In this document: in pieces, positions 26,591 to 62,595 of the stretch
Numbering within the stretch: the stretch's first letter is position 1
Layout: every line of letters begins with the position of its first letter
From: an uncultured Alphaproteobacteria bacterium
GTDB lineage: Bacteria > Pseudomonadota > Alphaproteobacteria > HIMB59 > GCA-002718135
DNA: 62,595 bases
Assembly (NCBI GenBank): GCA_902553945.1
Contig: CACDMT010000004.1
Coordinates: forward strand, 1-62,595
Reading direction: 5' to 3'
Notes under the pieces: generated by a model
Database searches by the model: none
Told to the model about the DNA's origin: nothing
What the model saw: the letters and a program-made list of their open reading frames with translations, nothing else
Position numbers and translations under genes: made by a program

Positions 26591-26932
26591 TTATATTTCA
26601 TTTATTTTATCAATCTTTGATGCTAAAATAAAATCATTTATAGAAAGTCCTTTAATTGCATGGGTATGTATCATTACTAAACAATAACCATAACCTATAC
26701 TTAAATCTGGATGATGTGATTCAATTTCCGCAATTTCTCCGACTTTATTTGCAAAATTCAATGATTTTTTAAAATTTTTAAATTTAAATTTTTTAAAAAT
26801 CATTTCTTGATTATCATTTACTGTCCATTCATTTAGATCAGATAAATATTTACTAATTTCTTCAAAATTAAGTTTAGGTGTATTACCAGTGCAAGGTTCA
26901 CATTTAGAAAGTGATAAATTATTTTTAATCAA
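26591..26932 (-). CDS. Pterin-4a-carbinolamine dehydratase
   Basis: CEPC, HHPD, THAIKGLSINDFILA. Confidence 0.9.
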   Translation of the reverse strand: MIKNNLSLSKCEPCTGNTPKLNFEEISKYLSDLNEWTVNDNQEMIFKKFKFKNFKKSLNFANKVGEIAEIESHHPDLSIGYGYCLVMIHTHAIKGLSINDFILASKIDKINEI

Positions 26933-59510: not shown

Positions 59511-59957
59511 TTATTTTAAATCTCTGCAGAAATTATAAACTTCTTCTGCATGACCTTTAACTTTTACTTTATTCCACTGATTTAAAATTTTACAATTATT
59601 ATCAATTATAAAGGTTGAACGATCAATTCCAAAATATTTTCTACCATACATTGATTTTTCAATCCAAATACCTAATTTTTCACAATTCTTTCCTTCATCT
59701 GATCCTAGTGGATATTTTAATTTATACTTTTCTAAAAATTTTCTATTTCTCTCAACTGGATCTTTTGAAGCTCCAATTATTTCAAAGCCTAGTTTTTTAA
59801 ATTTATTAAAAAACTTTTGAAAATCAGCAACTTCAACAGAACATCCTCCAGTTAAAGCTTTTGGATAAAAAAAAAGAACAGTTGGTGATTTAATTTTTAA
59901 ACTATCAAATTCTTTATTATTTGTTAAATTTAATTTAATTTTTGGAATTTTTTTCAT
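59511..59957 (-). CDS. bcp: Peroxiredoxin Bcp/PrxQ
   Basis: FYPKALTGGC, KSMYG, RSTF, VKVKGHA. Confidence 0.93.
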   Translation of the reverse strand: MKKIPKIKLNLTNNKEFDSLKIKSPTVLFFYPKALTGGCSVEVADFQKFFNKFKKLGFEIIGASKDPVERNRKFLEKYKLKYPLGSDEGKNCEKLGIWIEKSMYGRKYFGIDRSTFIIDNNCKILNQWNKVKVKGHAEEVYNFCRDLK

Positions 59958-59958
59958 G

Positions 59959-61080
59959 TTAAACAGCTATTTTCAAACCATATCCAGTTTTTTTAATTCT
60001 TGTTTTAAAATAATTTTTATTAAATTTATTTAACGTTGGTTTTGTATTAATTTGATTTTCAACTTTAATACCAGCTTTTTTAATTGAACTAATTTTATTT
60101 TTATTATTAGTTATTAAATTAACTTTCTGAATTTTTAATAATTTAAGTATTTGTGCAGCAATTTTAAAATCTCTTTCATCATCTAAAAAACCAATATTAT
60201 GATCTGCATCAATAGTATCCATTCCTTTTGATTGTAATGAATATGCTCTCATTTTATTTGCTAATCCTATTCCTCTGCCTTCTTGTTCTAAGTATAAAAT
60301 AATACCTCCATTATTTCTAGACATATAACTTATTGATTGATTTAATTGCTCACCACAATCACATTTCAATGAATGAAAAATATCACCGGTAAAACATGCT
60401 GAATGAATTCTTAGATTAACACATTGTTTTTTTATTTTATTTGGGTTAACTATTATAGCGACATGTTTTTCTGAACCAATATATGATTTAAAAATTTTAA
60501 AATTTGAATTTTGATTTTTTGGCAAAGGGACTTTAGCACTTGATACTAATTTTATACTTTTAGAAATTAATTCATTTTGATTTACTAAATCTTTATAATT
60601 AAACAATAAAACTCCATTTTTAAAAGCAAAATCATTAATATTTTCATTATATTTATTAGATATTTTTTTAAAGATTAAAGAAGGGATCATTTTAGCATTT
60701 TTAGAAAGATCAATACAAACATCATGGAATTTTTTTGATTTAAATTTTTTAATTTTACTAAATTTAATAGTTTTGTTTTTACTAAGGGGATTAACAAACA
60801 AATTTACAATATTGTTAATATCAGTTTTGTGATTAATCTCAAAAAAAATGTTATTTTTAATATTTTTATTGAAGATTGAGTAAGCCTTTTGCTTAGTTAC
60901 CAAAAGATATTTTTTATCAATTAAATACTTGTTAAATTGATTAAAAATAGATGAATGAGAATGTTCTATATTAAAAAACATCCAATTTTCCTCATTATTT
61001 TGAATTATCAGAGGTCTTCCAGTTCTTAACTCATTTATAGCTCTATCTATAATTGTACCAGCATTAGATTTGAAACTCAT
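59959..61080 (-). CDS. ribA: GTP cyclohydrolase II with degenerate N-terminal DHBP-synthase-like domain
   Basis: RIHSACFTGD...CDCGEQL, QEGRGIGL.NK, D.R, TNN; likely start MSFKS at 61080. Confidence 0.88.
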   Translation of the reverse strand: MSFKSNAGTIIDRAINELRTGRPLIIQNNEENWMFFNIEHSHSSIFNQFNKYLIDKKYLLVTKQKAYSIFNKNIKNNIFFEINHKTDINNIVNLFVNPLSKNKTIKFSKIKKFKSKKFHDVCIDLSKNAKMIPSLIFKKISNKYNENINDFAFKNGVLLFNYKDLVNQNELISKSIKLVSSAKVPLPKNQNSNFKIFKSYIGSEKHVAIIVNPNKIKKQCVNLRIHSACFTGDIFHSLKCDCGEQLNQSISYMSRNNGGIILYLEQEGRGIGLANKMRAYSLQSKGMDTIDADHNIGFLDDERDFKIAAQILKLLKIQKVNLITNNKNKISSIKKAGIKVENQINTKPTLNKFNKNYFKTRIKKTGYGLKIAV

Positions 61081-61116
61081 GAAAAGTTTATATAGATAGA
61101 AAATAGAGAAAAACAA

Positions 61117-61953
61117 ATGATAACTTCACAAAATATTGGTAAATTGCTTGAAAATATCAAAAATTCAAAGAAAACAGAAAGTTTGTTTTTTCAAATAACT
61201 AAATCTGTAATTAAAAAAACAACAAAAAATAAAAGATATAATTTTTCCTTAATTAAAAACAATATAGAAACAGATTTTAAATTAAGTCTTTTATACAAAT
61301 CAATTCTTGATATTTTGATACCGATTATAAGAGAAAAAAAGAAATTGACTATTGCACAATTAGGTCAAAGTATTGATGGGAGAATTGCACTAAATAATGG
61401 AAATTCTCATTACATTAATCATAAAAAAGGAATACACTATTTGCATTGTTTAAGAAGTATTAGTGATGCAATTATAGTAGGCTCAAACACGATAAAAAAA
61501 GATAACCCTCAGTTAACAACAAGAAAAATCAAAGGTAGTAATCCAAGACGAATAATTATAGATGGAAGCTTATCTTTAACAAATAAATATAAAATATTCA
61601 ATGATGGTTACGAAAATATAATATTTACAAAAAGTAAAAAAAATAAAATACTTAATAATTCAACAATTATAAGACTTGATAAAAATGATTTTACAAAAAA
61701 AATAATATATCAGATAAATAAACTTGGATATAAATATGTACTTATTGAAGGAGGATCAAAAACAATTTCAGAATTTATAAATAATAAATACATAGACTTA
61801 CTTCAATTTATAATAGCACCAATTGTTATTGGTTCAGGCATTAATTCTTTAAACTTAAAAGAGATTAAAAGTCTTAATAAAGCATTAAGACCTAAATTTT
61901 CCTACAATATTTTAGAAAAAGAACTTGTCGTGAATTTATTTCTTAATCGCTAA
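61117..61953 (+). CDS. Stand-alone RibD C-terminal reductase-family protein
   Basis: AQLGQSIDGRIA, H.LR...DAIIVG..T...DNPQLT, IEGG..T, IAP...GSG; no HxE/PCxxC deaminase domain. Confidence 0.88.
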   Translation: MITSQNIGKLLENIKNSKKTESLFFQITKSVIKKTTKNKRYNFSLIKNNIETDFKLSLLYKSILDILIPIIREKKKLTIAQLGQSIDGRIALNNGNSHYINHKKGIHYLHCLRSISDAIIVGSNTIKKDNPQLTTRKIKGSNPRRIIIDGSLSLTNKYKIFNDGYENIIFTKSKKNKILNNSTIIRLDKNDFTKKIIYQINKLGYKYVLIEGGSKTISEFINNKYIDLLQFIIAPIVIGSGINSLNLKEIKSLNKALRPKFSYNILEKELVVNLFLNR

Positions 61954-62595
61954 AAAATCAGTATTTTGCAAAATTAATCTTGAATTTTTTTCTTTAATAC
62001 AATTGTATCTAAACTGTAACCAAGATGAGTAATCTACTTTATTTTTTACAATAACTTTTTTACAAAAATATAAAAAATATTTTTGAAATTGATAATTTTT
62101 TACTACATCCCATTTTGAATTCATTAAATAAGTATTATGTGTTTTTTTGAATACATTATTAATCAATTTACTACAATCTGGGCCAATAGCTTTATTACCT
62201 ATACCCTTATCAGTTTTTTGATCTTTGTTAAAAAAATTAACGATTTTTTATCATATTTATGTTTTGGAAAAAATTTAAAGTCTCCATTATAATTTAAAGC
62301 AAATAATACTATTTCTGTTTTAGTATTAAATTTATGAAATTTATAAAACCAGCTCCGGGGTAATATATCTAAAAAAGCAGAACCAGTAACTATATCAAAT
62401 GTTTTAAATTTGATTCTATCTAAATCTTCAATAACATCAAAAATCTGAAATTTAGTTTTAATAATTTTATTAGATAAATTTATATTCTTTTTAAAATAAT
62501 TCATTGAATTTGAAGAAATATCGGTAAAAACCCAATTTTGTTTAAATTTTATTTTGGGTTTTAAATAATTAAAATTAGAGCCAGCTCCTGTACCT
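61936..62595 (-). pseudogene. Class I SAM methyltransferase-like gene, 5' end outside window, split by a -1 frameshift (possibly sequencing error)
   Basis: Frame from 62594 reads GTGAGSNFNYL...QNWVFTD...FDIVTGSAFLD...ALNYNG. Adding one A to the A6 run (62244-62249) restores DKKIVNFFNKDQKTDKGIGNKAIGP and joins the 61936-62166 ORF. Confidence 0.75.

Follow-up and report, generated by a model that had tools for sequence, protein, structure and literature searches.

The closest described counterpart of the locus analyzed here is the SCO6650-SCO6655 locus of Streptomyces coelicolor. In Streptomyces loci, genes for an MDR dehydrogenase, a member of the 6-pyruvoyl-tetrahydropterin synthase (PTPS) family, a GT4 glycosyltransferase, a methyltransferase and a membrane protein are followed by genes for a creatininase-family protein and a GTP cyclohydrolase II (GCH-II). 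The signature FGPAQ marks the class PTPS-IV, and the GCH-II family PF00925 has been noted in PTPS-IV neighbourhoods (PMC5445326). We analyzed a stretch of 62,595 nucleotides (nt), called the window below, which is the entire contig C4 (CACDMT010000004.1) of an uncultured alphaproteobacterium. The last 2.6 kb of this contig carry three genes, encoding a GCH-II, a RibD-type reductase and a class I S-adenosylmethionine (SAM) methyltransferase. We consider it probable that this trio is the right-hand edge of a PTPS-IV/SCO6650-type orphan biosynthetic cluster that draws on GTP and not a set of housekeeping riboflavin genes. The first-pass annotation of the window had regarded the genes as the best candidate for an undescribed system; as neighbourhoods of this kind have already been noted in print, that claim could not be retained. 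The locus is a further member of a cluster type that has been noted and is chemically unsolved, and its product chemistry is what we infer below.

The PTPS proteins encoded by related SAR11-type loci match SCO6650 (PDB 3D7J) with an E value of 8e-34 and bear the FGPAQ signature, and a GCH-II paralogue is linked in both cases. The SAR11 version differs from the Streptomyces one in having a long GCH-II with tyrosine at a diagnostic position (Tyr-type, see below), a linked reductase of the RibD_C family and no LPG_synthase_TM membrane protein, whereas the Streptomyces versions have a short GCH-II with methionine at that position (Met-type), usually lack the reductase and always carry the LPG_synthase_TM protein.

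Two other systems are similar in part. The pteridine glycoside pathways of cyanobacteria and green sulfur bacteria presumably also combine a PTPS-family enzyme with a glycosyltransferase acting on a GTP-derived pterin, but we take them to start from GTP cyclohydrolase I and to use a catalytic, zinc-bearing PTPS, neither of which is found here. The archaeal and fungal riboflavin branch, in which a Rib7-type reduction precedes deamination (PMC8256712), resembles the present set in its reductase without a fused deaminase and in the creatininase-family neighbour. In contrast to that branch, the cluster has no linked gene for a Rib2-type deaminase, a lumazine synthase or a riboflavin synthase, and the cyclohydrolase is of type II, not GCH-III/ArfB; the archaeal models score far under cut-off (86.8 against 186 bits for the reductase, 30 against 180 bits for ArfB with the creatininase-family protein).

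The GCH-II and the reductase at the contig end

The GCH-II open reading frame (ORF) occupies positions 59959-61116 of the minus strand. Its longest form reaches a TTG at 61116, but the start is likely the ATG at 61080, which gives 373 amino acids (aa), the length on record for the same protein (P0271) and close to that of the relatives (372 aa). The catalytic domain (59959-60540) matches PF00925 with E 1.1e-49 and, by sequence, the E. coli RibA structure 2BZ0 with E 5.6e-41. Alignment identified three zinc-binding cysteines and a tyrosine equivalent to E. coli Tyr105, a residue that we take to have a role in deformylation, and an AlphaFold2 (AF2) model (mean predicted local distance difference test score, pLDDT, 80) superposes on 2BZ0 with a template-modelling (TM) score of 0.88.

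The remainder of the protein (60541-61080) is an N-terminal domain of about 180 aa beyond the ordinary length of RibA, for which Pfam gave no match even at E 10 and no match to PF00926, the family of 3,4-dihydroxy-2-butanone-4-phosphate (DHBP) synthase. The whole protein is nevertheless collinear with the two-domain RibB(X) encoded elsewhere in this genome (residues 9-344 against 11-365, hhalign probability 97%, E 5e-11), and Foldseek matched it to the RibBA structure 4I14, the RibBX structure 6MNZ and stand-alone RibB structures with target-normalised TM scores of 0.5-0.6. The N-terminal half has a shortened version of the DHBP-synthase catalytic loop, in which other residues stand in place of the acidic ones. 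The NCBIfam model NF006456 (PRK08815, "GTP cyclohydrolase II RibA") aligns from end to end (residues 14-383), although at 265 bits it remains below its cut-off of 464. Combined, these comparisons show a protein derived from RibBA in which the DHBP-synthase half looks inactive and the catalytic half, with its three zinc-binding cysteines and its tyrosine, is intact. It shares its layout and fold with RibBA and RibBX, but in RibBX (6MNZ and the gene on contig C23 of this genome) it is the GCH-II half that is degenerate. An active bifunctional RibBA was ruled out by the lost acidic loop and the absent PF00926 match, even though the fold is kept.

The reductase gene (61117-61953, plus strand) stands head-to-head with the GCH-II gene, as had been proposed, across a divergent spacer of 36 nt (61081-61116) when the start at 61080 is used; the spacer is 38 nt in a locus from another family of the order (L032). 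RibD_C (PF01872, residues 79-251) is the sole Pfam domain of the 278-aa product. No deaminase domain was found by Pfam, which gave no match to the first 78 aa either, and the N-terminal extension of about 60-75 aa matches no family. A bifunctional riboflavin RibD was ruled out on these grounds. The protein resembles bacterial RibD as well as the archaeal and fungal reductases: it scores 112 bits with TIGR00227 and 86.8 bits with TIGR01508, both under cut-off, and matches RibD 2HXV with E 3.4e-20 and the Methanocaldococcus jannaschii reductase 2AZN with E 2.8e-15. Its 3' end overlaps the convergent methyltransferase gene (61936-62594, minus strand) by 18 nt (61936-61953), in agreement with the first-pass annotation; the overlap is likewise 18 nt in a locus of the same genus (L030) and 12 nt in L032.

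Genes for ordinary riboflavin synthesis are present elsewhere in the assembly. Contig C23 carries ribD (360 aa, with its deaminase region), ribE, a two-domain ribB(X) gene and ribH, and contig C2 carries an intact stand-alone ribA of 196 aa (L001:1474-2064). The C23 two-domain protein (L006:1462-2565) has an intact DHBP-synthase half but has lost the zinc Cys motif from its GCH-II half, and it is therefore of the RibBX type. The active GCH-II for riboflavin is the separate 196-aa RibA on C2, and the genome thus holds two reciprocally degenerate RibBA-shaped proteins in addition to a plain RibA. PF00677 and PF00885 match C23 only in this assembly, which bears out the earlier remark that ribE, ribH and nusB are missing near the trio. 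The window trio is not the canonical ribA/ribD pair: its genes are neither sole copies nor linked to ribE or ribH.

The cluster in relatives and its distribution

As the window is a whole contig and ends at 62595, this genome gives no view of the right flank. We therefore compared six SAR11-type loci, half of them from the genus of this bacterium and half from the other family of the order. The order is common to all six: a creatininase-family gene on the opposite strand, then MDR - PTPS - GT4 - methyltransferase, followed by the convergent RibD_C gene and the divergent GCH-II gene. The nearest relative (G081) is 82.6% identical at the nucleotide level over the last 1.6 kb of the window; its contig also ends inside the cluster, where an intact methyltransferase gene is directly preceded by the 3' two-thirds of the GT4 gene. 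The creatininase-family gene, the N-terminal domain of the GCH-II, the contig end and a frameshift in the methyltransferase gene had all been missed by the first-pass annotation. It had predicted a GT4, a PTPS-like protein, a zinc-binding dehydrogenase and a CDP-alcohol phosphatidyltransferase in the flank. The first three have counterparts in the relatives, the dehydrogenase without its zinc ligands, and the phosphatidyltransferase adjoins the cluster in only three of 14 diverse loci and in neither of the two SAR11-type loci scanned. The first-pass reading is supported, in that neither circumstance it had named as refuting it applies: relatives do have predicted genes in the flank, and the ribA and ribD copies of the trio are not the only ones.

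The PTPS-I motif is CxxxHGH (PMC5041015). In a 40-row alignment, the position of its cysteine and that of its last histidine are both alanine in the relatives' PTPS. It is a T-fold protein of the PTPS-IV class that lacks the PTPS catalytic cysteine and one zinc-ligand histidine. Six of its relatives (P0124, P0125, P0145, P0147, P0150 and P0160) are 373-855 aa long and contain three PTPS-IV stretches in tandem, amounting to a T-fold trimer joined in one polypeptide. In the MDR dehydrogenase the conserved zinc-ligand Cys and His are missing and the GxGxxG motif is kept; the best NCBIfam model is BchC, far under cut-off, in all three versions analyzed (SAR11, a gammaproteobacterium and Streptomyces), and no PDB sequence match was obtained. 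The creatininase-family neighbour matches PF02633 with E 1e-54 and keeps its metal motifs; among NCBIfam models MftE scores highest with it, though under cut-off. For the methyltransferase, there was no PDB sequence match worth naming. The AF2 model of an intact relative (pLDDT 95) has 3MGG as best PDB neighbour (TM 0.64), followed at TM 0.64 or less by phosphoethanolamine, juvenile-hormone-acid and histamine methyltransferases, and the ESM Atlas returned only clusters named "class I SAM-dependent methyltransferase". The structural neighbours are thus generic class I enzymes acting on small molecules and give no indication of the substrate.

A pattern scan of species-representative genomes returned at least 600 stretches, 594 of which were confirmed. 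Cluster loci thus number at least 594, in Proteobacteria, Actinomycetota, Bacteroidota and Gemmatimonadota. Eighty loci, some of them truncated, were kept; their carriers are SAR11-type single-cell genomes, Rhizobiales, Roseovarius, many Streptomyces and other actinomycetes, together with Bacteroidota, Gemmatimonadota, Gammaproteobacteria and Betaproteobacteria. Families were counted with iterated profiles, the methyltransferase by a strict profile. PTPS and GT4 are present in all 80 loci, MDR in 76, the methyltransferase in 68, creatininase in 56, GCH-II in 53, the LPG_synthase_TM membrane protein in 50 and RibD_C in 25. The apparent family X293 was discarded as an artefact lying antisense to GCH-II.

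Within the order, 105 of 187 genomes contain PTPS-IV, as do 10 of the 22 that are at least 90% complete. The cluster reductase follows it closely: by a hand tally, 48 of 51 genomes with a PTPS-IV match encode the reductase, against three of 29 without such a match, and the copies in those three are all at contig ends.

The column equivalent to Tyr105 was compared across 54 cluster-linked GCH-II sequences including that of the window, which is left out of the locus counts given here. Thirty-eight sequences are of the Met-type; they are short, Streptomyces-type proteins, and RibD_C is linked in two of the 38 loci. The Tyr-type is represented by 12 long, RibBA-shaped proteins from SAR11-type bacteria, two Gammaproteobacteria and one member of the Longimicrobiales, with RibD_C in 11 of 11 loci. 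The remaining four, short proteins from other actinomycetes, carry histidine, and one of their four loci has RibD_C. As the rows are kin, the association between tyrosine and the reductase rests on about three independent lineages.

Proposed route and alternative readings

A tentative route can be drawn from the predicted enzymes. GCH-II would open GTP to 2,5-diamino-6-ribosylamino-4(3H)-pyrimidinone 5'-phosphate, which the predicted reductase may convert to the ribityl form; since no deaminase is linked, the 2-amino group would be retained at this stage, as it is in archaea and fungi. The BchC-like dehydrogenase might then oxidise a secondary alcohol and the T-fold protein carry out ring or side-chain chemistry leading to a pterin- or pyrimidine-type core, to which the GT4 would add a sugar before the methyltransferase adds a methyl group. 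Such a compound would fall within the product class suggested by the first-pass annotation, a glycosylated or methylated metabolite of pterin or ribityl-pyrimidine type. The membrane proteins linked in other phyla suggest export or attachment to a lipid, and the SAR11 version is without them.

Several points weigh against the assignment to a GTP-derived biosynthetic cluster or against parts of this route. No product of the cluster was found in literature searches aimed at a product or at the SCO665x genes, the first-pass annotation likewise knew of none that is established, and among its enzymes only GCH-II paralogues have been assayed. The reductase is missing from most clusters of the Streptomyces type (36 of 38 Met-type loci), so the ribityl step is perhaps not universal. 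In the present assembly the partners were not found and the methyltransferase gene is frameshifted, so that function in this strain is only predicted. The role of the creatininase-family protein is also at issue. The Met variant of GCH-II reportedly stops at the formyl intermediate, according to work from the Bandarian laboratory. Together with deformylation by a BrbF-like protein, this would explain the constant pairing of GCH-II and creatininase in actinomycetes. Such a formamidase role looks redundant beside a Tyr-type GCH-II, where it leaves the presence of the creatininase unexplained. BrbF, a member of the creatininase family, has been proven to deformylate the formyl intermediate, and riboflavin synthesis depends on it (PMC9478397). 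Finally, PTPS-IV has been said, as unpublished work, to be involved in F420 synthesis (PMC5041015), which disagrees with the present reading; no follow-up to this statement was found in the literature.

The alternative that survives best, though we hold it unlikely, is that the locus is a decaying remnant in this strain, with a methyltransferase pseudogene and the rest of the cluster perhaps lost. The methyltransferase gene is split on the minus strand into frame A (62594-62199) and frame B (62247-61936), and its first 43 codons fall beyond the contig end, whereas the relatives have one open frame of 262-264 aa. The string of methyltransferase motifs in the first-pass annotation therefore consists of real residues but crosses the frameshift and joins two reading frames. 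Aligned with G081 and one further relative, the gene shows a 1-nt deficit in the A-run at 62244-62249, which has six A's where G009 has seven, and the deficit holds against every relative compared. GT4, PTPS, MDR and creatininase were not found in this assembly by tblastn with the relatives' proteins, and no other contig end of the assembly overlaps the last 15-55 bases of the window. These observations are those expected of a remnant. However, the assembly (1.15 Mb in 58 contigs, G+C 22-30%) is 63% complete, so the absence of the four partners says little and the contig may simply end; G081 has the same contig-end problem and yet an intact methyltransferase with GT4. Furthermore, both window fragments match the cluster's own methyltransferase family, and inspection by eye against the family alignment indicated that all invariant and near-invariant residues inside the window are kept in both halves, which argues for a recent lesion or a homopolymer miscall. 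Such a miscall explains the deficit just as well as decay does.

Metagenome evidence consists of short Logan contigs from related strains, none of which spans the stretch. Runs X1 and X3 contain relatives with one extra base near 62244, a point against the remnant, and three runs contain a more distant type. X3 also has contigs that match the window letters at 62235-62238 with no indel listed for them, a point on the side of the remnant. These contigs cannot settle whether the 1-nt deficit is real. Programmed frameshifting through an in-frame T_TTT_TTA heptamer just downstream of the break was rejected because the relatives' frame is uninterrupted with different letters there and the missing base lies in the A-run.

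Several genomes of the genus (this one, G081 and G128) break inside the same cluster. In one of them, the locus L117:1-754 (G128:C12) carries a GT4 fragment inverted against the 3' half of the methyltransferase gene, which looks like a chimeric or fold-back assembly end.

A second alternative, also of low probability, is a bypass of GTP cyclohydrolase I in which PTPS-IV would subject the GCH-II product to an Amadori rearrangement and ring closure, yielding dihydroneopterin phosphate for folate. Among genomes of the order, no FolE (PF01227) was found in the 81 with at least 80% completeness and no FolE2 (PF02649) in the 23 with at least 90%. Yet 62 of the 81 have HPPK, and FolB occurs in four of five genomes checked, so the first step of the pterin branch of folate synthesis is unaccounted for in the order. 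HPPK is also commoner with the cluster (46 of 51 genomes against 15 of 29; 21 of 22 against two of 12 in genus g2; hand tally). Chlamydia uses a GCH-II product as entry to pterins in an organism without FolE, by means of RibA and TrpF, an Amadori isomerase (PMC4161248); unlike that bypass, the present cluster has no TrpF and contains tailoring enzymes foreign to folate. Other observations speak against it: 15 genomes have HPPK and no PTPS-IV match (two of them, G081 and G128, carry the cluster at a contig end), and genomes of genus g1 without a PTPS-IV match keep HPPK in seven of eight cases, or five of six when G081 and G128 are left out. The association is thus strong in one genus only and is confounded by kinship, and GT4, methyltransferase and MDR have no place in folate synthesis. 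Many other carriers, such as Streptomyces, are expected to have FolE. The folB-folK genes of this genome lie at C2:64438-65158.

A more elaborate version can be formulated as a "split GTP cyclohydrolase I", to which we assign little weight. GCH-II, with a creatininase-type formamidase where needed, PTPS-IV and the BchC-like dehydrogenase would together form a neopterin-type pterin that is subsequently glycosylated and methylated, and this would be the sole dedicated pterin-forming route in SAR11-type bacteria without FolE and FolE2. If so, some of the most abundant cells of the ocean would contain an unrecognised pterin glycoside acting as a cofactor or signal and possibly feeding folate.

That the cluster is a second modular route to riboflavin, in which GCH-II, a BrbF-like formamidase and the reductase supply precursors internally as proposed for Sinorhizobium, is very unlikely. 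The requirement for BrbF in riboflavin synthesis and the missing zinc motif in the GCH-II half of the operon-encoded RibB(X) are in its favor, but this genome has an intact ribA on C2 and a ribD with its deaminase on C23, and no deaminase is linked to the cluster. Furthermore, of 80 genomes with at least 80% completeness, 29 do without the cluster, among them a single-contig genome that is 99% complete, and the most constant cluster members (PTPS-IV, MDR, GT4 and methyltransferase) have no role in riboflavin synthesis. An antibiotic cluster of the toxoflavin or other azapteridine type (GCH-II, RibD and N-methyltransferases) can be dismissed as extremely improbable: the GCH-II paralogue, RibD relative and SAM methyltransferase are presumably common to both, but the deaminase domain is absent, the partners are PTPS-IV, MDR, GT4 and creatininase and not toxoflavin-specific proteins, and the hosts are streamlined oligotrophs with genomes of about 1.3-1.6 Mb.

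The assignment to a PTPS-IV/SCO6650-type cluster has consequences for annotation, as "ribA" and "ribD" calls at such loci are not riboflavin genes; the real riboflavin set in this genome is the RibB(X) operon plus the stand-alone RibA. About half of the species in a dominant marine bacterial order, whose genomes are very small and seldom carry spare genes, retain the cluster, and hundreds of species in four or more phyla have it as well, yet no published product was found. Identification of the product would add a class of GTP-derived metabolites, whether cofactor, signal or envelope component, and would give functions to PTPS-IV, to the BchC-like dehydrogenase and to a methyltransferase family named by no curated model.

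Adjacent genes

No riboswitch was detected in the window by an Rfam scan, whose sole matches were two tRNAs. A gene for a pterin-4a-carbinolamine dehydratase (PF01329) is located in the window at 26603-26875 on the minus strand. The dehydratase is present in five of five genomes checked, and an aromatic amino-acid hydroxylase (PF00351) was found in none of these five. As one of them (G037) has the dehydratase and lacks the cluster, the dehydratase is not tied to it.

A Bcp-type peroxiredoxin gene (AhpC/TSA; 59511-59957, minus strand) follows 1 nt after the GCH-II gene. This adjacency is kept within the genus (L030, L031 and L035) and absent in the other family (L032-L034), so the peroxiredoxin probably stands outside the pathway.

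Neighbouring genes were scanned with Pfam for 23 of 27 cluster representatives and for 59 of 113 unassigned ORFs from the 14 diverse loci. YceI-like proteins, which bind lipids, were not seen in the two SAR11-type loci scanned and adjoin the cluster in three of the 14 diverse loci, outside SAR11 (L047, L053 and L110). FkbM-type methyltransferases adjoin it in three of the 14, likewise outside SAR11 (L064, L110 and L112).

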